From a virus (lineage: Duplodnaviria > Caudoviricetes), in IMG/VR virus record IMGVR_UViG_3300030419_006978, positions 1-56,597 of that record: a DNA stretch of 56,597 nt, one strand, 5' to 3'. Below the pieces are notes generated by a model. That model worked only from the letters and a program-made list of their open reading frames with translations, made no database searches and was not told where the DNA came from. Positions 3,634 to 33,675 of the stretch are shown here, piece by piece. Position numbers and translations under genes: made by a program. How positions within the stretch are numbered: the stretch's first letter is position 1; each line of letters begins with the position of its first letter.

Positions 3634-5202
3634 TCACCTTTCCACAATTCCACAAGAAGTTGTAATTAAAATTGAAGAAACCGAAGCAGCATTTTGAAGG
3701 GCAGATCGTGTCACTTTCAAAGGATCAATAATTCCAGCCTCATACATGTTCACGACCTCTCCGTTGACGAAGTTATATCCAAAATTACCATCCCGATTTT
3801 CCACCAAATCCTGTATTAAATCTGGTGACTCACCGGCATTTTTAGCCATCTGGCGCAGGGGCTCGCTCGCTGCAGCCTTGACAATATCGACGCCCCTATC
3901 CTGCTGTTCGTTATCTACGCTCACTTTAAGACCACCAACCGCCCGAAGCAGTGCCACCCCGCCGCCGGGGAGCATGCCTTCCTGCTGGGCAGACCTGACT
4001 GCTTCTAGTGCATCCTCAATCCTATGTCTTTTCTCAATTACTTCTACTTCCGTGGCGCCGCCAACGCGAACAATGGCTATGGCGCTAGCCAATCTGGTTA
4101 TTCTTTCCTGAATCCTGTGGCAGTCGCTTATATCTTCCGTCTGCTCCAGTTCTGCCTTAATCGCTTCGATTCTTTCCTCAATCGCCTCGTGATCGCCTCG
4201 ACCGCCAACAATTGTTGTGACATATTTCTCCACCTCTATTGTCTTTGCTCTTCCAAAATTTTCCAACTTGATAGCCTCTAGACTGGCTGTGGAGTTTCTG
4301 GTAATATATGCCGCCCCAACTGAAGCAGCCAGATCCTGAAGTATTTTTCTTCGCTCTTCTCCATATCTCGGGGGCTTTACTGCCGCAACCTTAAGTGTCC
4401 CGCGAACCGTATTCATGATGAGCGCAGCTAGCGCCTGTCCAGATACCTCATCTGCCACCACAATAAGTGGCTTGCCTTCTCGTGCCACTAGCTCTAGAGC
4501 CGGAAGTAGTTGATCAACAGACTCAACCTTATGGTCAGTTACCAAAATAAGAGGGTCACTATACTTGACAACCCCTCGTCGCTCGTCTGTAATAAAAGCA
4601 GACGCGACATATCCAGAGTCGAACCTGAATCCCTCGACCAACTCCAAGCTCGTGTCTAGTGACCGAGCCTCCTCAACCGTTATCGCGCCATCCTTTCCAA
4701 CCTGATCTACTGCAGTCGCTATCAGCTTTCCGATACTCGTATCTCCGTTCGCAGAGACAGTCGCTATGTGCTCAATGTCTTCTATGGAGGTCACCTGACT
4801 TGACATTTCTTTTAGGTTTTCCACAACAACATGCACGGCTTTATCGATACCACGCTTCAGTTCTATGGGCGATGCCCCGGCAGCGAGGTGCCCCTGTGCC
4901 TGTGTAAGAATCGATCTGGCTAGGACTGTTGCAGTCGTCGTGCCGTCACCAGCGTCCGAGTTGGTCTGGGACGATGCCTGCTTGACGATCTGGGCTCCCA
5001 CATTCTCAATCGGATCGTCAAGCTCTACAAACTCTGCGACAGTGACACCATCCTTGGTTACAATCGGGGTACCGCCCTTTGTTTGTAGGATGACGTTTCT
5101 GCCTCGGGGTCCAAGAGTTGCCGCAACATTATCAGCCAATGTGTCCACGCCGTGTAAAATTTTTCGACTCAAGTCCGAGCCGCTACTATATTCTTTGGTC
5201 AT
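3634..5202 (-). CDS. groEL: Chaperonin GroEL homolog
   Basis: TLGPRGRNV, TKDGVTVA, GDGTTTATVL, GGGVALL and GIIDPLKVTRSALQNAAS; no GGM tail. Confidence 0.97.
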   Translation of the reverse strand: MTKEYSSGSDLSRKILHGVDTLADNVAATLGPRGRNVILQTKGGTPIVTKDGVTVAEFVELDDPIENVGAQIVKQASSQTNSDAGDGTTTATVLARSILTQAQGHLAAGASPIELKRGIDKAVHVVVENLKEMSSQVTSIEDIEHIATVSANGDTSIGKLIATAVDQVGKDGAITVEEARSLDTSLELVEGFRFDSGYVASAFITDERRGVVKYSDPLILVTDHKVESVDQLLPALELVAREGKPLIVVADEVSGQALAALIMNTVRGTLKVAAVKPPRYGEERRKILQDLAASVGAAYITRNSTASLEAIKLENFGRAKTIEVEKYVTTIVGGRGDHEAIEERIEAIKAELEQTEDISDCHRIQERITRLASAIAIVRVGGATEVEVIEKRHRIEDALEAVRSAQQEGMLPGGGVALLRAVGGLKVSVDNEQQDRGVDIVKAAASEPLRQMAKNAGESPDLIQDLVENRDGNFGYNFVNGEVVNMYEAGIIDPLKVTRSALQNAASVSSILITTSCGIVER

Positions 5203-6116
5203 TACTTTCCTCTGCTCCTTGGGTATGGTAAATTATATAACTTTGGATTCAATTGTTTAAACAAGTTGTGCAACTCTTTTGTCTCGCGCTTGCTCCTTCC
5301 AAGTATATAACAATACTTGTGCTTAGGGGGCACAACTCTTGAGCGACAACTCTCCCTGTACTTCTTTTCTTCCGCCTTAATCTTTGTTTTTATCTCTGCT
5401 GGGATTATCTCCCAGTTCGGAGAATACTTCTTCATCCACTTGTCCCATTGTACCTTGCTTATCCCAATATTTTCAGCATATTTTCTGTACTTTGACTTCT
5501 TTCTGAAGTCTCGATCACTGAACCAGCCAGCCTTCTCGTTGCTTGGGTCAAAGTATTGTTTGGATGTCCCTGAAGTCTGTCCCAGATAAATAAAGTTGCA
5601 CGCCTGATAGATTGTACCAAGCTCTCTTGCCTCGGGATCACTATATGCCGTGAACATCCTGTAGCCCGTGTTGCGAACCATCCACTTGATTGAATTCATA
5701 ATCAGCCAGGAGCCGAGATTCTTCGGAGCCCAGCTAATGCTGGCTCCTCGGGAGATAAGTTTCTCCAGGCTCTTGTTCTCCTTGCCAAGGATGTGACTGA
5801 ACGCATTTGGTGTTGCCATAACCACCACTCCAGATAGTGTCTGAGAGGCTCTGTGACGCGCTGTAAAGCGTTCTGTTGGTCTGTTCGGCAACTTGCCCAG
5901 CCACTCGTGCCGTTGTATAAAATGCTTGATTTCCTGGCACTGCTCCTTATCGGATTTGTCCACGTAGGCAAAGTCAAAATCTGATGTGCGAAGCTGGCTG
6001 GCAGCCTCTTCTGTAAGGTTTGCTTCTTCCAAATCTTCAGCAAGATTCTGCAGTCGTACTTCGTACTGCCAGCAGTGAGACTTGTCAAAGCCCTTAAAGC
6101 GCTCGTGGATATTCAT
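5202..6116 (-). CDS. Mom-family (phage Mu) adenine-modification protein, GNAT-like fold
   Basis: FIQRHEWLG, LISRG, AYSDPEARELGTIYQACNFIYLG and the terminal KHKY...LPYP match the Mom-family pattern. Confidence 0.8.
   Translation of the reverse strand: MNIHERFKGFDKSHCWQYEVRLQNLAEDLEEANLTEEAASQLRTSDFDFAYVDKSDKEQCQEIKHFIQRHEWLGKLPNRPTERFTARHRASQTLSGVVVMATPNAFSHILGKENKSLEKLISRGASISWAPKNLGSWLIMNSIKWMVRNTGYRMFTAYSDPEARELGTIYQACNFIYLGQTSGTSKQYFDPSNEKAGWFSDRDFRKKSKYRKYAENIGISKVQWDKWMKKYSPNWEIIPAEIKTKIKAEEKKYRESCRSRVVPPKHKYCYILGRSKRETKELHNLFKQLNPKLYNLPYPRSRGK
5232..5260 (-). promoter_or_regulatory. Possible sigma70-type promoter for groEL, inside the end of the upstream gene
   Basis: TTAAAC-N17-TATAAT, then GAGG RBS. 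Confidence 0.5.
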
Positions 6117-6124
6117 CAACTTAC

Positions 6125-6153
6125 AGTATAATACTAGTAGGGGGAGAAGTCAA
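6125..6153 (-). promoter_or_regulatory. sigma70-type promoter for the mom-like gene (near-leaderless)
   Basis: TTGACT-N17-TATACT; ATG 8 nt downstream of the -10 box. Confidence 0.75.
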
Positions 6154-6156
6154 GCG

Positions 6157-8424
6157 TTATTTAACAACGCTGACTGTCCAAGAGACACCAAGCTCTTCAT
6201 TTTCGTACATCCTCTGACCAACCTTATACTTGCCACGATTAGTCTTGGAGTAGGTCGTGCGAACTTTAGTTATTGGTCGGAGCCTAAACTTAATATTGAT
6301 GGCGGGATCGGTCTTATAATGCTGTACCACATCCTCAACTGTCTGGGTTTTTGACAAGTGCTCAGACAGCACAGCCGGGTCCGTGATGCCAGCGGGCACA
6401 TCAGACACCAACACACCGTCTGCCGGGTGCAAGTTTTCTTCGCCACCACCGACAACTAGCCGCAAAAAGTTTTCATATTTATCGCCAAGAATATCAGAAA
6501 GCTTAGCGTAATAGTTTGCAATCTTGAAATTATTTCTGAACCGATTGTTGTGTCCAAAAGCTGGTGTCTGGGACAAAGTCTCCATGACATCCGCTCCCAC
6601 GGGGCTGGGGAATTCATAGGCAGGGTCAATTTGTTGCATTAGTTCAATAAAGCTGAGTCTCTCTTTGTCGATCACCGGCTTCTGTTGACCGGTGAGCATA
6701 GCTAGGGCGTCCCTCATTTCCTCGACTACGATGCCTGATTCTTCTTCGGTCATGCCAACCTGTTGCAGTCGCAGCATCATCTTCTTTGCATCCATCCAGT
6801 TTTCCAGGAAAGCAAAGTTTTCTTTCTTCATGCTTAAGCCAATCTCTTCGCCGCTTTCGGTTACAAGAACTATGTCAGCTTTCGGTTCCGGGTTCCCGCC
6901 GCCCAACTGCCTAGCCCCTTTGATAACGTGATTGCCCAAATTGCCCAAGTTTAGCTCTTGTGGTCCAGTACTCACAACATTGTTGACGGCGTCAACAAGA
7001 TTTCTCTCACTGGTTTGTCCGCTTACATGAACAGTCAACGCCTCCTCGACCATTTCAAGGAAGGATTCAGGATTTAAGTTTTTTTTTTCTTCTAGGGCGC
7101 GTGGATCTTCGGAGATTTCTTCTTCTAGGGAACCCTTAACAACCTCTGTATCCTTCACCGCCTGCTGCCCGTGTTGGATAGCGGTCTTACGCTGGCGAGA
7201 AGCGAAGTACTCACCAATGTTCGTCGTTAAGTTCTGCACCCCTTCCAGCAGGTTCATCACCCTGCCCTCAAGGATCTTGGCATAAATCTCAGCTATGGTA
7301 TTAAACTTCTCCTCGGTGAAATCTAAAGTGCCGTGCCCCTGCAAGCTAACTGCCCCGCCTAGATTCTGAATCATCGTAAAGGAAACTTCCCACTGCGAAG
7401 GGTCCTCGCCCTTGCCTTCTGCGATCATCCTCTCTTCTTCCATCAGCAGCTTCTCGCGCTGGTGGAAAGTCAGCGACTCAGCAACCGGCGGGCTGTCCAC
7501 CGCTTCGGGCGGGGGAAGCTCTCTATGCAACATACCCCTCTTGGTGTATCCCGGCGCAGCGGTTAGAAGGGCTGCGATCTGTTCCATGTTGTTGGCTTTG
7601 ATTGCAGCATTTAGTGCTTCAATGGACACATCACCAAGCAACATTTTAGTCTTTCTTGAGCCCCCTGCAAGGAAAGCCGTCAAATTTTCACGAGTAATGT
7701 CAAACTCCCAAATCTCAAGTGCGCCGACAGAACCCTTGTCTCCCGCAGCCTTGTCACCGCCTTCATAAGTCTTGTATGCAACAAGGTACTTAATCATCGG
7801 CTCGCCTCGCACAAACAAAAAGTCGACAAGGTTGGTGAAGCTGCCCTTAACCCCCGTGCTCTTTCCAAGTAACTTGAGGCTAACAGGTATGTTCTTGCCC
7901 CCAAACTGACTAAAGGCTACAAAATCCTCAATCGGCAGAGTGCCCTTAATGCGACCAGCTTCCTGATGACCCCCTGTGAGCGCAGCCATGAACGCTTCGA
8001 AAACAAAACCTGCTGAGGCTTCATTAAAATGGTTCATTGCAGCCTTAAGGCTCTCGATGATGATCATGGTGTTGATAATCACGCGTGGACTAGTCTTGCG
8101 CTTGGCTTTCTCTGGGTTTAAAAAGTCGTTAAGGTATTGAATTCTCGCAGCAATTGATGTTCCACCGCGAACAACCTTAAAAATATTATTAATCTGCTGA
8201 CGATCCATAGTCTCCGGATCGCCCCACGCCTCGGAGGGACCATACTTGGGCAAAGACAGGACAAACTTCTTGCCCTTGGACAGTTCTTCTTTCGCCTCTT
8301 CAGTTATAACTGGTCTGTCGGTATCAAGTGCATCCTCAACCATGTCCAAGAATTCATCAAGATTAAACTTTGGCGTTCGAGGAGAAAAGTATTGTTCTGC
8401 TAGCGATTTAATATCTTCGCTCAT
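6157..8424 (-). CDS. 755-aa protein with two PD-(D/E)XK-like nuclease domains
   Basis: GFVFE...PIED...VSLK and SE...PKAD...LSMK; a similar leader precedes each domain. Confidence 0.6.
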   Translation of the reverse strand: MSEDIKSLAEQYFSPRTPKFNLDEFLDMVEDALDTDRPVITEEAKEELSKGKKFVLSLPKYGPSEAWGDPETMDRQQINNIFKVVRGGTSIAARIQYLNDFLNPEKAKRKTSPRVIINTMIIIESLKAAMNHFNEASAGFVFEAFMAALTGGHQEAGRIKGTLPIEDFVAFSQFGGKNIPVSLKLLGKSTGVKGSFTNLVDFLFVRGEPMIKYLVAYKTYEGGDKAAGDKGSVGALEIWEFDITRENLTAFLAGGSRKTKMLLGDVSIEALNAAIKANNMEQIAALLTAAPGYTKRGMLHRELPPPEAVDSPPVAESLTFHQREKLLMEEERMIAEGKGEDPSQWEVSFTMIQNLGGAVSLQGHGTLDFTEEKFNTIAEIYAKILEGRVMNLLEGVQNLTTNIGEYFASRQRKTAIQHGQQAVKDTEVVKGSLEEEISEDPRALEEKKNLNPESFLEMVEEALTVHVSGQTSERNLVDAVNNVVSTGPQELNLGNLGNHVIKGARQLGGGNPEPKADIVLVTESGEEIGLSMKKENFAFLENWMDAKKMMLRLQQVGMTEEESGIVVEEMRDALAMLTGQQKPVIDKERLSFIELMQQIDPAYEFPSPVGADVMETLSQTPAFGHNNRFRNNFKIANYYAKLSDILGDKYENFLRLVVGGGEENLHPADGVLVSDVPAGITDPAVLSEHLSKTQTVEDVVQHYKTDPAINIKFRLRPITKVRTTYSKTNRGKYKVGQRMYENEELGVSWTVSVVK

Positions 8425-8428
8425 GTTT

Positions 8429-8436
8429 TAATTAGT
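8429..8436 (-). promoter_or_regulatory. Putative late promoter ACTAATTA
   Basis: Overlaps the endolysin stop; 4 nt before the next ATG. Confidence 0.6.
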
Positions 8437-9313
8437 CCTTCGACTCTCTAATATCATCAAGAATTTCAACCAGATCAACCCCGGCACAATCAATCTTGCC
8501 CCTAGTCAGGTGATAGTGGTGGACGACACCAGCGAAATCGGCACGAACAGACGGTGCATGCACTGTAGTTACCATTTCCCCGTCTTCATCAACTGGGCAT
8601 TCCAGCGGGATGTCATGTGCCTTGTTGAGAGCCTTGGTCAGCGCTTTCAGCGCTTCAATCTGAACTGGATAAAATCCGAGATGAGTTCCAAGCGTGCCTC
8701 CATGGACCTTAGCACCTTCCACCAGAGGACGACTTCCGAAGCCACGGCGCTCATAATACTTCTGATACTTCGTGTAATACGCATTGCTTATCTCCACTCC
8801 AACTGCAACGTTGTTAACGCGTCGGCTACTAGCATGCCATCCTATGTGCTGCGTGTCAAGCAGTTGGTATATTGTCCCATCGTTATCAATACAGAAGTGA
8901 ATCGATATCCCCCGCTTCTTGAGAACCTGCTCACAGGTCTTGGAGTCCAGGCACACATCCCAGTGTACAACAAAGATGGATGGATCGCGTGGACCTCGAT
9001 GCTTTCTGTAGTTACCCTCCTTGGTGGTCAGACCATCCGATTCTGTCCACACCACAACCTTGTCCCACTCAACTGCCACAGGCTTGCCATTGCAGACAAT
9101 ATAACTTTCATCCTCGAAGTTTTCAAAAACTCTGTGTGCAAGTAATCTTCTGTGAGTCATTGGTCCAACAAGACCATCCGGCGTCAGATCGTACTCTTTC
9201 TGGAACTCTTTAACTGCTTCTGTCAAGTCATCCTCAAACCCCTCGACACCAAACCACTCAGGTTCCCAGCCAAGCTTCTTTGCGCTGGCTTCATTGTAAA
9301 AATTCTTATCCAT
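8432..9313 (-). CDS. Endolysin: peptidoglycan-binding domain plus N-acetylmuramoyl-L-alanine amidase
   Basis: AVKEFQKEYDLTPDGLVGPMT (PG-binding); FVVHWD, SIHFCID, WHA, GVEI, HH...KIDC (Amidase_2). Confidence 0.9.
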   Translation of the reverse strand: MDKNFYNEASAKKLGWEPEWFGVEGFEDDLTEAVKEFQKEYDLTPDGLVGPMTHRRLLAHRVFENFEDESYIVCNGKPVAVEWDKVVVWTESDGLTTKEGNYRKHRGPRDPSIFVVHWDVCLDSKTCEQVLKKRGISIHFCIDNDGTIYQLLDTQHIGWHASSRRVNNVAVGVEISNAYYTKYQKYYERRGFGSRPLVEGAKVHGGTLGTHLGFYPVQIEALKALTKALNKAHDIPLECPVDEDGEMVTTVHAPSVRADFAGVVHHYHLTRGKIDCAGVDLVEILDDIRESKD

Positions 9314-9717: not shown

Positions 9718-9734
9718 TCGGTTCCCCTAAAAAG

Positions 9735-9762
9735 AAAGCCACGATACTATTACCGTGGCTTT
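9735..9762 (-). terminator. Intrinsic terminator
   Basis: AAAGCCACG/CGTGGCTTT stem followed by CTTTTT on the minus strand. Confidence 0.75.
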
Positions 9763-9763
9763 C

Positions 9764-9792
9764 ATTATACCCTTTGTGGGGTTTATTGTTAA
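9764..9792 (-). promoter_or_regulatory. sigma70-type promoter before the membrane protein/endolysin pair
   Basis: TTAACA-N17-TATAAT. Confidence 0.7.
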
Positions 9793-9802
9793 TTCTAAAG
9801 TC

Positions 9803-10471
9803 TTACTCTTCTTTCTTCGCCTTCTTGCTAGCGCGGATTAGCCGTGCAGCAACTCGCTTAGCAACTTCATTAATGAGTGCCTCGTCGTCGACAACTTCTG
9901 GCAACTCTTCACCCTCTTCCATGTACGCCCTATTTCCCGGGGGAAGCTCTTCCTCGCCTTCTAGACCGGGCTCTTCCTCACCTTCTAGACCGGGCTCTTC
10001 CTCACCTTCTAGACCGGGCTCTTCGGGCGGAAGACCAAGCTCCTCTTCGCCCCCTAGACCACCAAGGTCCCCAAGGTCGCCCTCGTCGGCGCCCGCTGCC
10101 GCTGCAGCGCCCTCAACGTCAACGTCAACACCAAGCTGCGCAGCAGAATCCTTGAGACCGACAATTACGTCCTCAACGAACTGGTTGAGTTCCTCCTCGC
10201 CAATACCACCCTCTGGCGGTGCTGGCGGAAGCTCCTCTCCTGCTAGCTCCTCATCTCCCAGAGGTACCTCCTCAACGGGACCTTCTGGTTCCTCGGGCGG
10301 AAGCTCCTCTCCCTCCGGGGGGAGGTCTCCCTCTTCGTCTTCAAGACCGGGCTCGCCAAACTCGTAGAGGTCGGTTACAAACCCCTGTGATAGTTTATCA
10401 ATTTCAGCCAGCTTCATGAACCGGCGAACGGTTGATTCATTCAGTAGCGGCTTCTTCTCGTCTTTAGCCAT
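9803..10471 (-). CDS. Highly acidic, low-complexity protein; probable prohead core/internal protein
   Basis: Glu/Pro/Gly-rich; N-terminal LLNESTVRRFMKLAEI resembles the scaffold C-terminus; late motif and AAGGAG upstream. Confidence 0.75.
   Translation of the reverse strand: MAKDEKKPLLNESTVRRFMKLAEIDKLSQGFVTDLYEFGEPGLEDEEGDLPPEGEELPPEEPEGPVEEVPLGDEELAGEELPPAPPEGGIGEEELNQFVEDVIVGLKDSAAQLGVDVDVEGAAAAAGADEGDLGDLGGLGGEEELGLPPEEPGLEGEEEPGLEGEEEPGLEGEEELPPGNRAYMEEGEELPEVVDDEALINEVAKRVAARLIRASKKAKKEE
9946..10024. repeat. 24-bp tandem repeat, three copies plus a partial copy (PGLEGEEE)
   Basis: gctcttcctcRccttctagaccgg at 9946, 9970 and 9994. Confidence 0.95.
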
Positions 10472-10565: not shown

Positions 10566-10811
10566 TTACCCCTTAAGCTCAGCTGCTGCAGCTCTTTTTT
10601 TAAGCTTGCTCAGTATTTCAGTCTCAATCTGCTTAACTCTTACGAAACTTATGCCCAAGCGATCTGCAACTTGTCGCAAAGTCATGGGTCCATTTTTGTT
10701 AACAGCGACGAGGGTGCAGTTCAAGTCCTCCGAGTAGTCTAGCCATAGTCGGCAATCCTTCTGCACACACTCTTCTCCTTCTATCATGCATTCTCTAGCG
10801 CATTTTCTCAT
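10566..10811 (-). CDS. Stand-alone sigma70 region-4 HTH protein with Cys-rich N-terminus
   Basis: PMTLRQVADRLGISFVRVKQIE...LSKL follows the sigma4 pattern; five Cys in the first 32 aa. Confidence 0.8.
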   Translation of the reverse strand: MRKCARECMIEGEECVQKDCRLWLDYSEDLNCTLVAVNKNGPMTLRQVADRLGISFVRVKQIETEILSKLKKRAAAAELKG

Positions 10812-11125: not shown

Positions 11126-12208
11126 TTATTTTCTCAAAATATGTGTACTGCTCTCACTGGCTCCAGCAGAAGTCTGCTTTACAAACCTCGCCTTAGCCTG
11201 AAGCTGTGTTAGAGTCCTGGCTCCGGAGTATGAAAATCCGCTGCGGATGCCCCTACTGAGGTCTTCAAGAACATCCTCTACGGGACCCTTACAGCGAACC
11301 GTCGTCGCGACCCCCTCTAGGGACGATGCTCTGCCCCTCCACTCTACCTGGGCGTCCTTGCTAGCCATGCCTCGATAAGATTTAAACTTTCCCCGGCGGG
11401 TATTAATTACGTCTCCAGGAGTTTCATCAGTACCTGCAAGCAAAGACCCAAGCATAACGAAGTCAGCACCAGCTGCCAAAGCCTTGACAATATCGCCAGC
11501 GTTCCGTATTCCTCCGTCAGCAATGATGGGCGCTCCCCTTTCTGATTTAGCACAATCAATAATTGTTTGAAGCCCCGGAACACCATGGCCAGTCTGAACC
11601 CTAGTTGAACAAATAGAACCGCCGCCAATATTGCAGCGCACACTATCGGCTCCCCAATCGACCAAGTCATTATAACCCTCCAATGTTGCAACGTTGCCCG
11701 CTATGATGTGAACAGCGTCTGCGAAAACCTCCCGCAATTCGCTAAGTGCTTCCTTCATTAATATGTGATGCCCATGGGCTACGTCCACACATAGGATTCG
11801 CACGCCCGCATCATAAAGGGCTGTCGCTCTATCTAAATAGTCTCCAGAAGTTCCTATCGCTGCAGCGGCATTGCAGCCTGCCTTTATTATAATGCCATCA
11901 AGAATGCTGACCTGTTCTTCTATCGTGTTATAGCGATGCACAACCGCTAACCCACCGGACTGCCACATAGCCACGCCCATTCCTTCTTCGCTAATTGTAT
12001 CCATTGGACTGGAGATAATAGGCAGAGATAGCTTGGTCGTCGGACCGTTACCCCTTAAGACCGATGCGATGCTTACTTCGCGACGGCTCTTGATGTCTGA
12101 GTATTGCGGTACTAACAGTACATCATCATAAGTTAACGTCTCCCTGACTGGATCGTCGTGGTCATGACCGTAATGGTACGCCACACCGCTACTGGGGCTG
12201 AACTTCAT
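11126..12208 (-). CDS. IMP dehydrogenase/GMP reductase family enzyme without CBS domains
   Basis: [47 protein letters not shown]. Confidence 0.93.
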
Positions 12209-12470
12209 TTCTTTTAAACCTTTCCTGCATCTCGGCTAGCGTATCCTTCGCAGACTGCCAGCACTCTGGGCACCAGAGATTAACCTTGTCTTGTTCTTTT
12301 CTGACCACCACCGTCCACGACATGACCATGTCCTTGTCTTTCTTATCAAAGTCCTTGCTACACGACATGCACGCACCGGGAAGCTTATCGAACATATTAA
12401 GCTTCTGCGCCATCTCCTTTTGCGCTCGCTTCTTGGCTTTGTTGTGCTTTCTGAGCTTTGGTCTGCTCAT
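12189..12470 (-). CDS. Small zinc-finger protein
   Basis: CMSC...CPEC; start MSRPK in an ATGA overlap with the methylase stop. Confidence 0.7.
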   Translation of the reverse strand: MSRPKLRKHNKAKKRAQKEMAQKLNMFDKLPGACMSCSKDFDKKDKDMVMSWTVVVRKEQDKVNLWCPECWQSAKDTLAEMQERFKRNEVQPQ

Positions 12471-13000
12471 TCTCTCTCCATCGGGTATACGGTTGGGCTC
12501 AAAATCACCGGACCTTTGTACAGGGTGTCGGAATGAAACACTGCAACGGCAGAGGGGAACGGGGCTGCATTGGTAGAGTTGCCAAACTTTAGACGACCAC
12601 GAACAAAGTGCACCTCTTTCGCCTTCATGACGTATCTGTGCCACCACTTCGTATCAGTCCGAGAGGGAATAAGCATAACGACAATCGTGTTGTGTTTCTT
12701 AGATTCCTCATACCCCTTCCTAATCCAGTCGCCAATATCTCTACCGTAAGGCGGGTTTACAAAAACCGTGTGCCCTCCCCAGTCCTGAATCAGACCGTCA
12801 TCTTCTTCTGTATAATATTTTTTACACTTGGCGCTTGAAGGCGTAGCACACGGGTCCAGGGTGAACTGAAACTGTTTATCAAGCTTGTCAAAGAAAGCTT
12901 GCGGCGTGTCCCACTCGCCGGTCTTTGAGCTAAAGCCCACTGCGCCGCTGTCTTTACTCCACAACTTCGCGCCTCTCGCGCTAACAACTTCAGCCTTCAT
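12467..13000 (-). CDS. Phage DNA N6-adenine methyltransferase
   Basis: EWDTP, FTLDPCA, DGL..DW, VFVNPPY, LIPSRTDT.WW, GRLKF, APFPS. Confidence 0.92.
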   Translation of the reverse strand: MKAEVVSARGAKLWSKDSGAVGFSSKTGEWDTPQAFFDKLDKQFQFTLDPCATPSSAKCKKYYTEEDDGLIQDWGGHTVFVNPPYGRDIGDWIRKGYEESKKHNTIVVMLIPSRTDTKWWHRYVMKAKEVHFVRGRLKFGNSTNAAPFPSAVAVFHSDTLYKGPVILSPTVYPMERE

Positions 13001-13457
13001 CTGTGCTCCCCAAAGCTCCGTCACCACGGTGACTCATCGTAATTGGATACCAGTCATACAGGTCTCCAGACTGCGTCTCTATTGCCCTAAACGGGACCAC
13101 CGGAACAAGTACGACCTGTGCGATCTTTGCATTACGTTCAATGTGCTGCACCTCTTTTCCAACGTTGTGCAAGTTAATAAAAACTTCTCCGTCGTAACCG
13201 CTATCAATCACACATGCTCCGACAATCAAGCCCTGCTTGGCAGCAACGCTTGAGCGATTCTTCACCTCAAGCATGAATCCGTGAGGCACCCCGAACCTTA
13301 GCCCGGTAGGCAGTATCACACTCTCTCCCGGGTTGACCTTCATCACCCTTACAGCAACATCTTCGGGGCTGTAAAACACATCCAACCCCGCATCGCTCGG
13401 ATTTGCCCTGACCGGTGGCTTAGCCGATTCTCTAACTCTCGTATATTCTAGTAACAT
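12990..13457 (-). CDS. dut: Trimeric dUTPase
   Basis: AGLD, NRSS, VIDSGYDGE, IAQ, RGDGALGST. Confidence 0.95.
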   Translation of the reverse strand: MLLEYTRVRESAKPPVRANPSDAGLDVFYSPEDVAVRVMKVNPGESVILPTGLRFGVPHGFMLEVKNRSSVAAKQGLIVGACVIDSGYDGEVFINLHNVGKEVQHIERNAKIAQVVLVPVVPFRAIETQSGDLYDWYPITMSHRGDGALGSTDEG

Positions 13458-13466
13458 TATTTTCTC

Positions 13467-14069
13467 CTATTCAAAGTCTATGTTGACGTTAACCGTAACG
13501 TTAAATTTTGGTACACGTATCTGGTTAGCTAAGTTGTGAAATTTTGCCTCTTCGGCATCTAAAAACCAGTCCGCGTGGCTCTTCTCGTGAATCAGGTCCA
13601 AGAAATGTTCATCCCTCTTTCCACAATTGCGTGCCATCATTCGGTATACCTTCTGGTTTAACCTGTCTGCCTCGGCGCTATCCGCTTTTATCTCTTCGAC
13701 CTTGCCCCAGACAGAAGTTGAAACATCATGAATCATTAGGGTGGCATCCGGGTCCATAAACCTCATACCTTCAGTTCCAAAAGAATACAGTATAGCCCCG
13801 CAGGACATGGCTTTGCCCTCAACAATGGTGGCTACTGGCAGTTCAGCGTGTCTGATCGAGGAAATCATGCTCATCAGGCTGTAAACCTGCCCTCCATAAG
13901 AATCAACGATCACCGGAATGACAGACTGACCAGTATTGTGAGCCGCATTCATCTGGTTTTCAAACTCTTTCGCCGCCTTGTTGTTAAACTCGTTAACACG
14001 AACAACAACAGGTCGCTTCCTTAGCTCTGGTTCTTTTAAAAGTTTACTAAATGTGAACGTGGTCTTCAT
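13467..14069 (-). CDS. clpP: ClpP-family protease
   Basis: DSYGG, AMSCG (catalytic Ser), LMIHD (His), DWFLDAEEA (Asp). Confidence 0.9.
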   Translation of the reverse strand: MKTTFTFSKLLKEPELRKRPVVVRVNEFNNKAAKEFENQMNAAHNTGQSVIPVIVDSYGGQVYSLMSMISSIRHAELPVATIVEGKAMSCGAILYSFGTEGMRFMDPDATLMIHDVSTSVWGKVEEIKADSAEADRLNQKVYRMMARNCGKRDEHFLDLIHEKSHADWFLDAEEAKFHNLANQIRVPKFNVTVNVNIDFE

Positions 14070-15067
14070 TATATTGTCTCCGGGTTATAAGAAAAGTGAA
14101 CATCAATGTCAGAAAACGTGGCAGTAATGTAGTCGCGCATCTCCTCTTCAGATGTAAACTTAACTTTAATTCGATCATCGTTTCCGCAACGAAGACCCCA
14201 CGTACCCAGCTGTTTAAGCACATCCATTTTGTTTATGACGATGTGGGTGACCCCGTTAATGTTTGCTGCCCTCTTAAGCAGGTTAACATCTGTCCAATTG
14301 CATTGTCGCGGGCGACCTGTGGTCGCGCCGTACTCCTTGCCAACTTTCCTTATTAAGTTAAAAATGTCTTGATCTTTGGGCTGAAAATCTTTTGCGCCCA
14401 CATATGTCTCATATGCCTTGGCTACACCCCAGACGTGTCTTACTGACTTCGGGGGGATTCCATTTAGAAGTGCTCCAGCAACTGTACAATGGCTAGAAGT
14501 GACGAAAGGATAGTCCCCCCAATCAATATCAAGACCGAAACCTTGAGCACCTTCCAGTAGAACTTCCACCTGATTTTCGTTATTATGGAGTTCTTCATAG
14601 ATATCTATTGTATACTCGTCAAGCTCCGGAACGTCAGTGGCTCTCACGCCAGTCCTGTCGTACTTGTCCCGGTAGGCGGGTCCGTTGCCGCGACCCGTGG
14701 TCCCTATCCTAGTATCTTTTTCGTCTTCTTGCATGTGCTCATCAGTTATAATGTGAGCATTCTTGGCAATCTTAATTAGTCCTGCACAAACTATTCCACC
14801 CTGTTCTAATTCGTTAATTTCGTTGAAAAATTGTTGCAGATTTACGACGCACCCCGGACCAATAATGGACTTGACTCCGTAAAACACTCCAGCTGGAATA
14901 TGGTGGGTCACAAACTTCTTTCCCTCGTGGTAAATTGTGTGCCCAGCGTTGCAGCCACCGTTGTAGCGGATGCAGTGTGTGTAGTTGCCACCCTCCAGCA
15001 AATGATGGGTGACCTTGCCCTTGCCGCAGTCTCCATACTGCAAATCAACAATTATGTCTGCAATCAT
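14069..15067 (-). CDS. purA: Adenylosuccinate synthetase, short form
   Basis: QYGDCGKGK, GGCNAGHT, IGTTGRGNGPAY, EGAQG, YPFVTSS, GATTGRPR, NKMD. Confidence 0.95.
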   Translation of the reverse strand: MIADIIVDLQYGDCGKGKVTHHLLEGGNYTHCIRYNGGCNAGHTIYHEGKKFVTHHIPAGVFYGVKSIIGPGCVVNLQQFFNEINELEQGGIVCAGLIKIAKNAHIITDEHMQEDEKDTRIGTTGRGNGPAYRDKYDRTGVRATDVPELDEYTIDIYEELHNNENQVEVLLEGAQGFGLDIDWGDYPFVTSSHCTVAGALLNGIPPKSVRHVWGVAKAYETYVGAKDFQPKDQDIFNLIRKVGKEYGATTGRPRQCNWTDVNLLKRAANINGVTHIVINKMDVLKQLGTWGLRCGNDDRIKVKFTSEEEMRDYITATFSDIDVHFSYNPETI

Positions 15068-15219: not shown

Positions 15220-18200
15220 TTATCCTAATAGCCTAAAATTGTGCCTAATCGACCTCGTTGAGAAGCCCCATTGCTCATCATAATCCAGTCGTGCCATGTA
15301 GGGTCGGTTGACATGAACTGTGTCTCCAGATTTCACTCCCCAACACTTAATCTTTGTAACCGTACTGGTTGAGTCAATAGCCTCGACAATCAAATAGTTA
15401 CTTCCGTTCTTTGTCTTTCGTTTCGTGACCTTTCTGGGAATAAACCAAGAGACCAAGAGTTCTGGATCATATTCTCCGAGCGGAGGGATATAGTTCTCTT
15501 CGAGCTTCTTTCTCACGTTGTCTGTCACGACCAGACCAATCGGGAATACGCCTGTAAGGTCAACGAGGTACTGAATCTTTTCCTCTTGTGTGAACTCTGC
15601 TTCGCCAGCGAAGAACTCGATGTTCTCACCGAACTTCTTCGTGTTCTTTGGTCGCTCTACCGCCACGGACGCCCAAAAATGTTTTAGGTTATTAAATCTA
15701 TCGTCCATCAGCGTGTTGAGCGCCTGCGCACGAATTAAAGCATCGAGCGCCTTCTTGTTAAGTTTACTATAAACGATGTCCTCATTAAAGATAAAATCTT
15801 CAATTGTTTCAAAAGGACGATTACTTAGCACTTGTGCAATTGCAGCATCGCCAAGTCCCTTGATCGAAGTAAGCGGCTGAATTAAAGTTTGCCCGTCCTC
15901 GGAAATCTCCCAAACAGTGCCAGAAGTATTAATGTTCAACGGCTCAATGTCAAAGCCAAACTTCTTGGCAGTGTGGATAGCGTTCTCTTTCCTAGTTTCT
16001 GGCTCCTTGTCCAAAAACGCCGCCATCCACTCAGCCGGGTAGTTGTTCAGTAGCCACGCGCACTGGTAAGATATGACGCTGTAAGATACAGCATGAGACT
16101 TATTAAATCCATATCCACCGAAATATTCAAAATTCTGCCACAAGTCCTCTGCATTGTACTTGCTAATCCCCTTCTCAAGGCATCCATCAATAAACCTCCT
16201 GCGTATGTCGTCCTTGGCTTCGTGCCCCTTGCCCGTTCCCTTCTTGGTCAGAAGCTTTCGAAGCAAATTGCCCTCATCCAACGTGATATCCTTACCTAGT
16301 CTGTGAGCCAAAATAGCAATCTGTTCTTGGAAAATCAAGAAGCCGTATGTTTCCTCCGTTACCTCGCGAACAATGTCGTTAACGTACTTAATGTTTGCCG
16401 GATCCCTCTTTGCCTCGATAAACCTCTTGTCCACGCCAGCCCCAAGAGGACCCGGTCGATAAATACTAGTAATTGCCGCTAGCTCGGTCAAGCTCGTCGG
16501 CTTAACCCTCTTGCAAAAATCTTGAGCGCCGCCTTCCGTAAGCTGGAATACACCTGCCCACTTTCCTTTGTGGAAAATGTTTTTCCACACGCCCTGGTCA
16601 TCAAAATCTATAACATCTGGATGAAGCTTCTCGCTGTAGTATTTTTTAACATCGTCAAATGTCGGCTCTGTTACCCCATGCTCCCTCTTGAGGATATGCC
16701 GAATGCAACCATCGATCATCCTCAGTGACGCCAGTCCCAGAACATCGAACTTGATGAACCCCATCGGCTCAAGGTGCCTCACGTTCTGTCCCTCTGACCA
16801 GGGAGTTTGCCTAACGCCCTTGCTGTTAATCAGGGGCATCCAGCGATCCAGATTCTCCCCAACAACGATGCCCCCTGCATGTCGCGAAGCTGAGCGGGTC
16901 TGACCGTGTAGCGCCTCAACGTGAATCTTGACATGGGGATACTTCTGAAGGAAGTTCTGCAGACTTGCGCTAAACTCCATCGTCTCTTCAAACGTCGGCA
17001 CGTATACGCCAGACTTAATTCCATGCTTGGCTTTGGCTGGTCCCGTCGCCTCATATAACATCTTGCCAGTAACCTGATTCACCTCGGTAAATGGAATTCC
17101 ATAAAACTTTGAAATATCCTTGATGAGGCTGCGTAGTTGAAGTGTGTTCCAGTTCGAAATTGGCACCACACTATCGTCGCCCCACTCCTCAACCAAGCCC
17201 TCCTTAAGGCTCATCGGGTCGGACACATCATAGTCAATGTCTGGATAGTCTGTAGCATCGCGGCGAAGGAATCTCTCAAACAAGAGACCCCAACGCACTG
17301 GATCAATCTGTGTGACGCCCAAGAGGTATGCCACAAGCGATCCTGCGCCCGAACCACGCCCTGGACCGGTCAGCTGCCTCTCGTTTGCCTTGTCGGCAAT
17401 TGCTGCCATGGTCAAAAAGTACTTGCTAAATCCTCGCTCACTAATCACCTCAAGTTCGGTCTTGAGTCTCTCCTCGTACTCCTCAGAGAACAAGCCCAGG
17501 CGGCTCTTGCCCTGCTCGCACAAAGCGACAAGAGCGTCGTCAGCAGTGGTGCCCTCCGGGACAACAAAGTCTGGTAGCCTAACTTCATTATCAGGAATGA
17601 AAGTCTCTATCCTCTCACATGCAATCTGGTGAGTGCGCTTAATAGCATCAAGCACCAGATCGTCGTCGTATTCAACCCCAGCCCCAGCGCTGAACCTCTT
17701 GTATGACTCCCACATCTGATCGCCGTTCTTGGGGTACAACTCCATGCCCAGTTCGTCAATTGAATCCGGGAGAGTGTCTGATACATAGTCTGGCTTAAAC
17801 GTTCCCATCATAAAGCCCAGGCGCTTGTAAAGCTCTCGATCCTTCCAGGCTTCCGGGCGGGGGTAGTGACTGTCGGCAGTGACTATAAGCTCGATGCCGA
17901 ACTCTTCATGCATTTGAATTATGTACTTGTTCAGGTCGTGCTGCTCCGGTGCTGCGTTCCATTGTAGCTCGCCGTACCAACGATCTCCAAAAACATCCAG
18001 CATCTTGCGAGTCGTCTCTCGCATTGCCTCAAGTACCTTCTCCTCGTTAACTCCGGTGCGATTACCCTCTTCGTCGTACTCTAAGCCAGCCCAATAGTCA
18101 CCGGCATACACGCCCCCAAGGCATGCAGACGCTGCAATAATGCCTTCGCCATACTCTTTGAGCATCGCATAATCAACACGCGGATAGCGATAAAAATTTT

Positions 18201-18666
18201 CAGATTTAAAACTGTTAGAAACCAGCTTAAACAAGTTGTTTAAGCCAGTCTGATTCTGCGCTAGAAGAATCAAGTGGCGTCGACGATTCAATATGTTTCT
18301 AATTGCCTTTTTCGATGCCGCCTCGTCTTCAATGGTAGTGCCCGACTGCGCAGACTTGGCTGATTTCTTCTCCTTTACCTTCTCATACTCCTCGCGCCAT
18401 TCCGCGATTGAAGGGGTAAAGTATGCCTCAACTCCGTAGATGGGTTTAAACTCTTTGCCGTCTGCATGCATCTTCTTGGCATGTAAGACTTGATAGGCAA
18501 GACCGTTCATGTTGCCATGATCGGTTAGGGCAAGGGCATCCATGCCGTTCTCATAAGCATAATCCATATGCTCTTGCGGGTAACCAATAGCGTCGAAGAC
18601 GCTTCCCGCTACGCTGTGTGCGTGTAATCCCACGAATGGAATCTTTGGTTTCTCTCTATCAGTCAC
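15220..18666 (-). CDS. dnaE: DNA polymerase III alpha subunit (family C, DnaE type) with PHP domain
   Basis: LHAHS, TDHG, GRGSGAGSLVAY, FERFL, PDIDYD, KFDVLGL, YRPGP, FQEQ, YGFNKSH. Confidence 0.97.
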   Translation of the reverse strand: MTDREKPKIPFVGLHAHSVAGSVFDAIGYPQEHMDYAYENGMDALALTDHGNMNGLAYQVLHAKKMHADGKEFKPIYGVEAYFTPSIAEWREEYEKVKEKKSAKSAQSGTTIEDEAASKKAIRNILNRRRHLILLAQNQTGLNNLFKLVSNSFKSENFYRYPRVDYAMLKEYGEGIIAASACLGGVYAGDYWAGLEYDEEGNRTGVNEEKVLEAMRETTRKMLDVFGDRWYGELQWNAAPEQHDLNKYIIQMHEEFGIELIVTADSHYPRPEAWKDRELYKRLGFMMGTFKPDYVSDTLPDSIDELGMELYPKNGDQMWESYKRFSAGAGVEYDDDLVLDAIKRTHQIACERIETFIPDNEVRLPDFVVPEGTTADDALVALCEQGKSRLGLFSEEYEERLKTELEVISERGFSKYFLTMAAIADKANERQLTGPGRGSGAGSLVAYLLGVTQIDPVRWGLLFERFLRRDATDYPDIDYDVSDPMSLKEGLVEEWGDDSVVPISNWNTLQLRSLIKDISKFYGIPFTEVNQVTGKMLYEATGPAKAKHGIKSGVYVPTFEETMEFSASLQNFLQKYPHVKIHVEALHGQTRSASRHAGGIVVGENLDRWMPLINSKGVRQTPWSEGQNVRHLEPMGFIKFDVLGLASLRMIDGCIRHILKREHGVTEPTFDDVKKYYSEKLHPDVIDFDDQGVWKNIFHKGKWAGVFQLTEGGAQDFCKRVKPTSLTELAAITSIYRPGPLGAGVDKRFIEAKRDPANIKYVNDIVREVTEETYGFLIFQEQIAILAHRLGKDITLDEGNLLRKLLTKKGTGKGHEAKDDIRRRFIDGCLEKGISKYNAEDLWQNFEYFGGYGFNKSHAVSYSVISYQCAWLLNNYPAEWMAAFLDKEPETRKENAIHTAKKFGFDIEPLNINTSGTVWEISEDGQTLIQPLTSIKGLGDAAIAQVLSNRPFETIEDFIFNEDIVYSKLNKKALDALIRAQALNTLMDDRFNNLKHFWASVAVERPKNTKKFGENIEFFAGEAEFTQEEKIQYLVDLTGVFPIGLVVTDNVRKKLEENYIPPLGEYDPELLVSWFIPRKVTKRKTKNGSNYLIVEAIDSTSTVTKIKCWGVKSGDTVHVNRPYMARLDYDEQWGFSTRSIRHNFRLLG

Positions 18667-32192: not shown

Positions 32193-32494
32193 TACTCCCC
32201 AACTACCTCCAAAATTATACGCCCCTCAAAGCCGCCCTTCGTCACCCTTTTAGCAATCTGCTCAGCCTTGAATCCGTGCAGCTTATAACACCTCTGAATC
32301 TGGTCTAGCACCTCATACACGTCTGCCAACTCTTCTGGGCACGGGTCTTCTATTAATTCTTCAACTTCTTCTCTTAGCTTGTCTTTAAGCCTTTCCAGAT
32401 ACTCCTCTTCCTCCGCTATTCGATATACGCACCTCTTTCCAGAGTTTTTGATAATCTCCGGTATCCTGTCTCTTACTAGCTTGTGGTATTCCAT
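32192..32494 (-). CDS. MazG-like all-alpha NTP pyrophosphohydrolase
   Basis: KLVRDRIPEII, KLREEVEE, EELADVYEVL, KR..KGGF. Confidence 0.88.
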   Translation of the reverse strand: MEYHKLVRDRIPEIIKNSGKRCVYRIAEEEEYLERLKDKLREEVEELIEDPCPEELADVYEVLDQIQRCYKLHGFKAEQIAKRVTKGGFEGRIILEVVGE

Positions 32495-33675
32495 TTAAAC
32501 TCCCTCATTTCACCAAAATTCTTGCCCATCTTTGCAGTGGCCAAAAAATCTCCAAATTTTGTCCGCGAAAAATTTTTGCAAATCGAAGATATTAGGGCCC
32601 GATCCTCTACAGAGAAATCAAGTACTAGACTATCATGAATCATGAAAGAAATGAAGCTCTTTTTGCCCCTTAATAGCCTATTGACCTCTATTGCCTGCCT
32701 TAAGAAGATATCACTAGCGGTCGACTGAACAAGATAGTTCACTGCATGGAATTCATCTGATTCAATCAATCTCCCGAAAGGATTCACGATGTGGCTTCCA
32801 TTCCAGTACTTCTTTTTGATAAGCTCCCTGTTGTATGTCATGTCAGCTAGATGGTCACGAGAACTCTGGTTATAGAGCCATGCAAATATTCTTTTCTTTG
32901 CCAACTCCCGAGTGCCGATTCCCCTGTAGACGTTCTCCAAATTCCACTCATGTATATCTTGCTGTGGCTGGTCTGCACCAAGCAGTGCCAACAAGGTCCG
33001 GAGTTCGGCAGCGTTAAAATCTAGCTCAACAAAGCAGTCATTTTTGGGCTGTATAACCTTTCGGAACTCCTTCTCCATAGTGAGTATCGGAAAACTGTTC
33101 TTCTCCGTGGTCAACCGACCGGTCTTGGTCCCGAAGACGTTGTACCTGCACGAATGCTGAACCTTGTTCAGCTTCTGTGCGAACTGTCTTACTTTAAACT
33201 CTGCCATCCTGCCCTTGAGAGCCGATGTGTTTATCTCTAGACGATTTTCCTTGATCTGCTCCGTAAGCTTGATTAGTTCTATCAAAAAATCATAATTCTG
33301 CGGTCTGGCATAGTTCGCAAAAACATGCTGAGAAATTTTATTTTTTAGATTGCAAAACTCTAGAAGGAATCGCTGTGGAACGAGATCAAAAAAGCAGTTA
33401 TCTTGTAAAGAGACTCTAGCCTCCTTAAACGACCTGACAAACGCCTTGAGCTTCTTGTTGATCTCAGCCCATTCTTCTCTCAGGTTTTCGGGACATACCT
33501 CCTCCAGTGATCTGCCGCCGCAGTAGAGCTTGGCATATTCAACCTCACGGTCAGCGAGGTGGGGTGCGTAGTTCCAGGTTTTACTCGCCCCGTCTGGAAG
33601 CTTGTCGAACACAAGCTCTCCATCCAAAAAGTAGCCCACGCACTCTTTTTTATCATCTAATGTTTGAAATAACAC
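32476..33675 (-). CDS. Minimal family A DNA polymerase domain
   Basis: TKTGRL, motif A DFNAAELR, motif B RELAKKRIFAWLY, NYLVQSTASD, motif C IHDS. Confidence 0.85.
   Translation of the reverse strand: MLFQTLDDKKECVGYFLDGELVFDKLPDGASKTWNYAPHLADREVEYAKLYCGGRSLEEVCPENLREEWAEINKKLKAFVRSFKEARVSLQDNCFFDLVPQRFLLEFCNLKNKISQHVFANYARPQNYDFLIELIKLTEQIKENRLEINTSALKGRMAEFKVRQFAQKLNKVQHSCRYNVFGTKTGRLTTEKNSFPILTMEKEFRKVIQPKNDCFVELDFNAAELRTLLALLGADQPQQDIHEWNLENVYRGIGTRELAKKRIFAWLYNQSSRDHLADMTYNRELIKKKYWNGSHIVNPFGRLIESDEFHAVNYLVQSTASDIFLRQAIEVNRLLRGKKSFISFMIHDSLVLDFSVEDRALISSICKNFSRTKFGDFLATAKMGKNFGEMREFKWNTTS

Follow-up and report, generated by a model that had tools for sequence, protein, structure and literature searches.

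The locus considered here, in the phage record IMGVR_UViG_3300030419_006978, consists of an open reading frame (ORF) for a protein of 755 amino acids (aa) and the adjoining gene for a Mom-like DNA modifier; the window analysed is the whole 56,597-nucleotide stretch, positions 1 to 56,597 of that record. Several described systems resemble parts of this locus. (i) The monomeric type IIP restriction endonucleases MspI, HinP1I and HhaI cut sites of G and C only in the account of PMC7026639, which gives the active-site layout of HhaI as SD-X11-EAK. (ii) The T4 internal proteins IPI-III, products of one polymorphic locus, have unrelated bodies and are described as sharing only a short N-terminal capsid-targeting sequence (PMC3012670). 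(iii) Chloroviruses encode restriction-type nucleases together with a modification of their own DNA, an arrangement proposed to be directed against host DNA (PMC7019647). (iv) In polymorphic toxins, including the MuF phage toxins, the N-terminal part is conserved, the C-terminal effector varies by recombination, and a protective gene lies downstream (PMC5576092, PMC3482391). (v) Mom of phage Mu transfers glycine from Gly-tRNA onto adenine N6; R111, S124 and also R151 are given as essential in the account of PMC13219725, which lists D149 as well.

Judged by its relatives, the 755-aa protein is a natural in-frame fusion of two phage families that are usually encoded separately, here called the N-module and the C-module. 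Its gene occupies a recombination slot immediately 5' of phage GroEL; the phages that have this slot are uncultured marine T4-like myoviruses of one lineage. A conserved leader of ~35 codons is followed there by interchangeable bodies, with Mom directly downstream of those bodies that are not of the N-family. The slot proteins may be phage-made, probably sequence-specific endonucleases that cut non-self DNA, either the host chromosome or rival phages; cassette exchange would diversify what they cut, and modified bases, the work of Mom with Dam-like and PurZ-like genes nearby, would shield the phage genome. We regard this reading, that of phage endonucleases acting on non-self DNA while the phage genome is shielded, as evenly poised between right and wrong. 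The features of the slot and its flanks are the following:

3634-5202, minus strand: GroEL-type chaperonin, downstream flank of the slot (Pfam and PHROG profile matches)
5202-6119, minus strand: Mom-like DNA modification gene, 305 aa from a TTG at 6119, with an ATG next, at 6116 (PF25680, phrog_1384)
6125-6153, minus strand: promoter-like consensus match in the 37-nt gap before Mom, 10 of 12 positions, of doubtful function
6157-8424, minus strand: 755-aa ORF, in-frame fusion of N-module and C-module (ORF call; the halves stand alone elsewhere)
6160-7023, minus strand: C-module, aa 468-755, MspI/HinP1I-like fold; E473 at 7006-7008, D517 at 6874-6876, S531-x-K533 at 6826-6834
7024-7086, minus strand: internal half-leader, aa 447-467, at the N/C junction (positions 19-40 of the leader hidden Markov model, HMM)
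7102-8277, minus strand: N-module, aa ~50-441, of an uncharacterised family, tentatively a PD-(D/E)XK nuclease; E143 at 7996-7998, D167 at 7924-7926, S182-x-K184 at 7873-7881
8317-8424, minus strand: leader, aa 1-~36, two short helices (leader HMM; DNA homology ends ~35 codons in)
8432-9313, minus strand: Amidase_2/PG_binding_1 endolysin-like gene, upstream flank, ending 8 nt before the 755-aa ORF (profile matches)

Compared with MspI, HinP1I and HhaI, the C-module has a similar predicted fold and the active-site layout of HhaI but no sequence match to these families, a serine for the D/E and no adjacent methyltransferase; it differs further in being encoded by a phage, in its leader and in its fusion to a second module. 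As in T4, a single polymorphic locus of a T4-like phage holds unrelated bodies behind a short N-terminal leader, which is likened to the T4 capsid-targeting sequence by layout, not by sequence comparison; unlike the small anti-restriction proteins of T4, the slot bodies are nuclease-like and span 290-840 aa. The chloroviruses offer a parallel for a virus that would encode both restriction-type nucleases and the modification of its own DNA, yet their enzymes adjoin cognate methyltransferases, whereas the neighbour here is Mom, constant whatever the nuclease. The organization also recalls the polymorphic toxins with their conserved N-terminal part, exchangeable effector and downstream protective gene; in contrast to toxin-immunity pairs, Mom is a constant DNA modifier (82-95% DNA identity) and not a matching immunity protein, no known trafficking domain is present, and the N-module itself looks enzymatic. 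The Mom-like protein belongs to the Pfam Mom family above the cut-off and keeps the R111 and S124 positions of Mu Mom, from which it differs in its low identity (~20%), its length (305 aa as opposed to ~241 aa for the Mu ORF), the unaligned R151 and the lack of an identified Com-like regulator. The parts thus resemble known systems; their combination, one leader with exchangeable restriction-enzyme-like bodies and a constant Mom, is new to us, and we know of no earlier restriction-modification-like arrangement with an adenine hypermodifier as protector, our literature searches having been aimed at neither.

A fusion of two phage protein families

The 755-aa protein matches no Pfam, NCBIfam or PADLOC family, and phmmer and profile searches with the whole protein and with each module found no sequence relative in the PDB. 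A tblastn search against 50,697 phage records gave no match, so that no cultured relative is usable. Metagenomic relatives are abundant, with 619 cluster representatives at E <= 0.001. Most of them are 430-500 aa long and align to aa ~1-441 alone (in P0024, for example, aa 10-440 are matched at 49% identity); a separate group of 59 shorter proteins, mostly 300-365 aa, matches the last 311 residues. In record G010 the two families are represented by separate genes ~21 kb apart. Proteins of at least 415 aa that include the C-module number only four, and two proteins, P0001 (818 aa) and the fragment P0007, repeat the architecture of the window; the fusion, though real, is thus limited to a small sub-lineage. 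Other proteins extend the N-module differently: P0002 has the same N-module and half-leader followed by a body of the L105/L111 type, and P0037 and P0186 have the N-module, the half-leader and other sequence.

Near-identical DNA is present in contigs from four further marine runs (four studies), which cover Mom, the C-module and the N-module at >=99%; no RNA run was among the sequencing runs listed as carrying the sequence. One contig (X2) spans the boundary between Mom and the C-module (5961-6912), and none from these runs spans 6913-7170, so that P0001 and P0007 are the support for the N/C junction. Homology between the two modules is not detectable: hhalign aligns them in the leader region alone (probability 2.8%); a complex prediction for the two modules scored 0.00, which is evidence neither way. 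Three further proteins of ~1070-1100 aa (P0116, P0118, P0211) hold the N-module in mid-protein, at aa ~403-837, with ~400 extra residues in front; P0118 is labelled nicotinamide mononucleotide adenylyltransferase by one source.

The preliminary description had read two nuclease-like modules from short motifs, whose positions are correct (FE 142-143, PIED 164-167, SLK 182-184, PKAD 514-517, SMK 531-533); the C-module stands firm by its fold, and the N-module is plausible by motif, its fold being uncertain. E473, P-E-P-K-A-D (512-517) and S531-M-K533 occur unchanged in all 30 C-family sequences compared. The structural model of the C-module contains the PD-(D/E)XK core (helix, three-stranded meander, helix, strand), with E473 in helix 25-39, D517 at the start of strand 74-78 and S531-x-K533 in strand 83-89; the serine takes the place where the D/E of (D/E)xK usually stands. 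By predicted fold, the C-module is firmly assigned to the MspI/HinP1I/HhaI-like type of monomeric PD-(D/E)XK restriction endonucleases, with an intact E...D...SxK site laid out as in HhaI, and it is a putative DNA-cleaving enzyme. Curated MspI/HinP1I family profiles did not match it, no Pfam family was found and none recurred among 30 members, and the PDB yielded no sequence or profile match. The earlier comparison with Cfr10I/NgoMIV finds no support, the nearest fold being MspI/HinP1I instead; Cfr10I and NgoMIV are absent among the fold matches listed for both models, an absence that excludes nothing.

The N-family is a large unnamed family of marine phages. In 30 of 30 sequences, which are 38-56% identical to the N-module of the window, E143, P164, I165, D167 and S182-L183-K184 are invariant, so that the named motifs are not chance strings, and together E143, D167 and S182-L-K184 form the E/D/xK constellation. 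The predicted model is of moderate quality, with a predicted local distance difference test score (pLDDT) of 71.7. A wide structural search with this model was swamped by helical hairpins matching aa 386-442; the ESM Atlas gave RE_Eco47II as a lead (0.86), and BFVD contained two structural relatives (E 4.8e-14 and 2.2e-7), both without a functional label. Mainly because of the invariant E/D/SxK pattern, we lean slightly towards a PD-(D/E)XK nuclease, which would probably be a divergent member of the superfamily of the C-module.

The leader and the exchangeable slot

An HMM built from 131 distinct N-family N-termini also detects the leader outside this family. It matches the N-termini of C-family proteins (P0122, E 6e-11), an internal copy at aa 447-467 (independent E 0.017 in the window, 5.9e-6 in P0007) and a third set of ORFs of 367-482 aa, neither N- nor C-family, which lie directly upstream of Mom (L105, L106, L109-L114, L118). 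The similar helices noted earlier in front of each module, starting at aa 20 and aa 450, are thus real and represent copies of one leader of ~35 residues. Leader-bearing slot proteins are up to 94% identical across their first ~34 residues and show no identity thereafter. The DNA behaves in the same manner: in a comparison of five relatives with L110 as reference, 80-95% identity extends to about codon 35 of the slot ORF, breaks off completely and resumes ~10 nt before Mom. When the slot proteins collected were grouped by BLASTP after removal of leader and tail, 10 body groups resulted, N and C counted separately, which makes at least 10 unrelated bodies. A shared leader on unrelated proteins at a single polymorphic locus is therefore present.

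The slot keeps its neighbours to different degrees: GroEL adjoins it in 64 of 80 N-family loci and ClpP flanks it in 59 of the 80, and an amidase/endolysin-like homologue is found in only 14. Some bodies other than N and C carry indications of their own: that of L118 matches PADLOC REase_II, a type II restriction enzyme family (E 2.4e-6), and for that of L110 the nearest Pfam-named ESM Atlas cluster is R-HINP1I (score 0.90, 14% of members), a lead only. An hhalign comparison of the C-module with the L113/L104 group gave a suggestive alignment through the E-helix and the PK[AS]D strand, at a probability of only 7.7%. Searches of the L118, L110 and L105 bodies against PDB sequences (phmmer/profile) returned chance-level rows only, and a Pfam scan of 13 ORFs upstream of Mom found no family at cut-off.

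The ends of the bodies also deserve mention. Four unrelated bodies (L102, L104, L127, L142) have in common a C-terminal tail of 25-31 residues, 44-76% identical, similar to the latter half of the leader and either adjoining or overlapping the start of Mom. In several of the remaining slot bodies the last two or three residues are glutamates.

The preliminary description had taken the 755-aa protein for a late, protease-processed and head-packaged polyprotein paired with a self-protecting modification. Spelled out, the leader would in this model be a capsid-targeting propeptide, the prohead protease would cut at the leader copies, the nucleases would be injected, and Mom would protect the phage itself. 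As a whole, the observation is partly confirmed and the reading partly supported; the packaging model, a minority view, we consider unlikely. The T4 protease gp21 cleaves according to the rule [LI]xE. Within the first 14 residues this motif is found in 98 of 131 N-family leaders compared with 279 of 1241 control ORFs, and the leader is of low pLDDT and not packed on the body in the model. A gp21-type protease, Peptidase_S77, is encoded in three of three longer related records; in the window fragment, which covers ~31% of a genome, it was not found. Over the whole 755-aa protein the I/L-x-E sites, once seen as a signal, are unremarkable (15 as opposed to 10.8 expected from composition). As for the label "late", TATAAATA, the T4 late-promoter consensus, occurs in the window at chance level (2 copies vs 1.86 expected), neither of them nearby. 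One N-terminal leader on diverse bodies at a polymorphic locus of a T4-like phage is what the T4 precedent of internal proteins sharing a capsid-targeting sequence would lead one to expect (PMC3012670), and chloroviruses are described as packaging their restriction enzymes but not the methyltransferases (PMC7019647). Against packaging, the slot protein alone carries the leader, both in the window and in the complete relative G006 (best other match E 0.03), and the leader stays with the slot rather than with a protein family: C-family genes located between the SSB and UvsX genes (L082-L087) have a different N-terminus. The 755-aa gene, moreover, lies among genes of nucleotide metabolism and chaperones, >34 kb from the head and tail genes. 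Improbable as well, in our estimate, is a polymorphic "injected restriction enzyme" system in abundant marine T4-like phages, in which the leader would direct the proteins to the prohead, a gp21-type protease would free the body or split fusions at the half-leader, the nucleases would enter with the DNA to destroy host or rival DNA, and one broad Mom would protect against the whole repertoire.

The Mom-like gene and its association with the slot

That the downstream gene is Mom-like, as described earlier, is borne out by PF25680 (45.2 bits, cut-off 27.1, E 1.1e-11) and by phrog_1384 (E 1.9e-19). In an alignment of nine sequences including Mu Mom (from NC_000929), the columns of R111 and S124 are invariant, D149 aligns with a D and Y159 is kept; the R151 column holds an E, with an R two places on. 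A phmmer search of the PDB found no Mom structure. The supposed sigma70 promoter of Mom does not stand up: TTGACT-17-TATACT at 6153-6125 matches the consensus at 10 of 12 positions, its -10 element ends 6 nt before the TTG start, and such matches abound in the region (16, vs 8.3 +/- 2.8 in shuffles). By ORF calls, the end of the cassette ORF in relatives adjoins the start of Mom or overlaps it.

Homologues of the gene also occur elsewhere. In other viral contigs (L134-L138) they form the C-terminal part of ORFs of 645-662 aa, and Mom is further found after a PolA-like gene (655-676 aa) or after ORFs of 115-134 aa, most of which end in a similar motif. In G006 (185 kb), at 66362-68818, minus strand (L213), a Mom-like gene of another kind, 351 aa long, follows a 411-aa ORF whose N-terminal motif may resemble DUF262/GmrSD-type proteins.

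The adjacency of nuclease and Mom noted in the preliminary description turns out to be selective. A census of 86 distinct GroEL genes with their upstream regions found the N-family alone in 63, none of them with Mom; Mom was present in 10. In all 10 Mom-bearing slots a body other than N lies immediately upstream of Mom, and in the window this body is the C-module. A sample anchored on GroEL alone (n=29) contained 17 N-family members, two other leader-bearing bodies and no Mom. In the GroEL tree, loci with Mom are scattered among those that have N only; seven changes of the label are needed for Mom, and well-supported branches force at least three of them. Set against L003 and L005, its relatives with N only, the window contains ~1.9 kb of extra DNA, from ~7110 to 5204, consisting of half-leader, C-module and Mom and placed in frame behind the resident N gene; in L088/L130 the order is C-Mom-GroEL, without N. 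The census, the tree and the extra block together imply that Mom travels with non-N bodies. For the C-module and the variable bodies, the adjacency is therefore non-random (10 of 10 slots, at least three independent changes); what has to be given up is an obligate pairing. Simple co-occurrence with the two modules of the window fails as well: among 80 Mom loci none has N and one has C, all five long Mom-bearing records (51-83% complete) lack both families, and the N profile detected its family in five of five long records used as positive control. Of five long N-bearing records, one has a Mom-like gene, ~14 kb away.

A number of observations weigh against endonucleases that act on non-self DNA under the protection of Mom. 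Mom or a C-module within 6 kb is found in none of 80 N-family loci, Mom in one of 19 C-family loci (18 are without it), and G010 (33% complete) has both N and C without Mom. Mom remains 82-95% identical in DNA while the nuclease body is fully replaced. Being constant across bodies, it is not the cognate partner that a type II methyltransferase would be, and the exchange of bodies under an unchanged Mom fits a broad, non-cognate protector or mere linkage. No methyltransferase adjoins the 755-aa gene, whose neighbours are the amidase and Mom; the only one found, Dam-like, lies ~4 kb from the start of the ORF, so that no cognate enzyme of a type II restriction-modification system was detected beside it. 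If the sites of the C-module also consisted of G and C only, adenine modification would give no protection. Bodies other than the C-module and that of L118 are called nuclease-like from D...(E/S)xK strings read by eye, and hhalign finds only the leader in common between the C-module and two other body groups. For the N-module, the fold assignment is uncertain: aa 156-166, just before D167, have a pLDDT <50, and the restriction endonucleases among the Foldseek rows (DpnI, SfiI, EcoRV) are weak.

Some of these points would also be expected from selfish or neutral cassette turnover, in which the bodies are homing-type endonucleases or hot-spot passengers, the leader serves as a 5' recombination anchor and Mom is a separate anti-restriction neighbour. 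The sharp breaks in homology behind the leader and shortly ahead of Mom, the unchanged Mom next to different bodies and its occurrence in other contexts (PolA-like gene, ORFs of 115-134 aa, fused forms of 645-662 aa) are in line with such turnover. We nevertheless judge it to be rather improbable: the leader is kept as protein beyond detectable DNA similarity (the N-leader HMM still finds C leaders at E 6e-11), the invariance of the catalytic-type residues of N over 30 sequences 38-56% identical argues for selection on function, and the presence of Mom tracks non-N bodies in at least three independent lineages.

The N-family is the commonest occupant of the slot (63 of 86 GroEL rows, 17 of 29 GroEL-anchored loci). 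As a fixed core gene it was considered and rejected, since close relatives replace it and it is missing from the five long records with Mom. The N-module, and perhaps the C-module, might instead have a housekeeping role, acting on the phage genome or in nucleotide supply (recombination, replication, concatemer processing or host-DNA salvage), or the N-module might be no nuclease, with Mom unrelated in either case. This would suit the prevalence of the N-family, its conserved synteny with IMPDH/GMP-reductase-like, dUTPase-like and ClpP genes, the C-family genes between SSB and UvsX-like genes (L082-L087) and the weak fold assignment of the N-module. We judge it improbable, since an essential function could not be taken over by unrelated bodies, and such bodies do replace N in close relatives: in the GroEL tree, for instance, L114, which has another body and Mom, pairs as sister with L017, which has N without Mom. 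The five long Mom-bearing records, moreover, have neither N nor C.

The locus is of interest in several respects. Both halves of the 755-aa protein belong to families that are unnamed in Pfam, NCBIfam and PADLOC and of unknown function in PHROGs. The slot amounts to a natural library of restriction-enzyme-like proteins and a possible source of new specificities, its bodies being swapped at sharply defined borders in uncultured marine phages that are widespread. For phages that cannot yet be grown, the shared leader offers a concrete and testable candidate signal for targeting or processing. If the coupling to Mom is true, one adenine hypermodifier, not a methyltransferase, would be the protective partner of many nucleases.

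Phage lineage and neighbouring genes

Every long ORF of the window is on the minus strand, and the record is estimated to represent 31% of a genome. It encodes a Gp23-family capsid protein, tail sheath and tail tube; a DnaE-type polymerase, a DnaB-like helicase and a UvsX-like recombinase; and, in addition, ribonucleotide reductase, ClpP and Hsp20. The closest cultured capsid proteins, those of Flavobacterium phage immuto, Microcystis phage Mel-JY01 and Rhodothermus phage RM378, are only 43-49% identical; the window therefore derives from an uncultured, distant T4-like marine myovirus. Hsp20 (1255-1743), GroEL (3634-5202) and ClpP (13467-14069), all on the minus strand, form a phage-borne chaperone/protease set.

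A cluster of genes for nucleotide metabolism and DNA modification occupies 11126-15067, minus strand. It includes an IMPDH/GMP-reductase-like gene (PF00478, E 8e-101) and the following:

12467-13027, minus strand: Dam-family methyltransferase (family match)
12990-13457, minus strand: dUTPase/dCTP-deaminase-like gene (family match)
13467-14069, minus strand: ClpP (family match)
14069-15067, minus strand: PurZ-like adenylosuccinate-synthetase homologue (phrog_1211, E 6e-71)

Taken together, these genes suggest a genome with several base modifications, perhaps including 2-aminoadenine; a PurZ-like homologue is present in only five of 80 related loci.

The DnaE-type polymerase is encoded at 15220-18666, minus strand (phrog_405, E 8e-225). 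Separate from it, a 399-aa ORF at 32476-33675, minus strand, shows only a fragment-like match to DNA_pol_A (E 4e-13). Between the cluster and the slot, an 81-aa protein with a sigma-70 region 4 domain (10566-10811, minus strand; E 1.6e-8) is kept in 73 of 80 related loci, possibly as a transcription factor of the phage. A very acidic 222-aa protein (9803-10471, minus strand), with E/G/P-rich repeats, a conserved basic N-terminus and no family match, has homologues in 18 of 80 loci and in G006 (54976-55545). Between its gene and a 134-aa ORF, a strong terminator-like hairpin with a 13-bp stem followed by a T run is located at 9734-9792, minus strand, immediately preceded by a promoter-like match at 11 of 12 positions.

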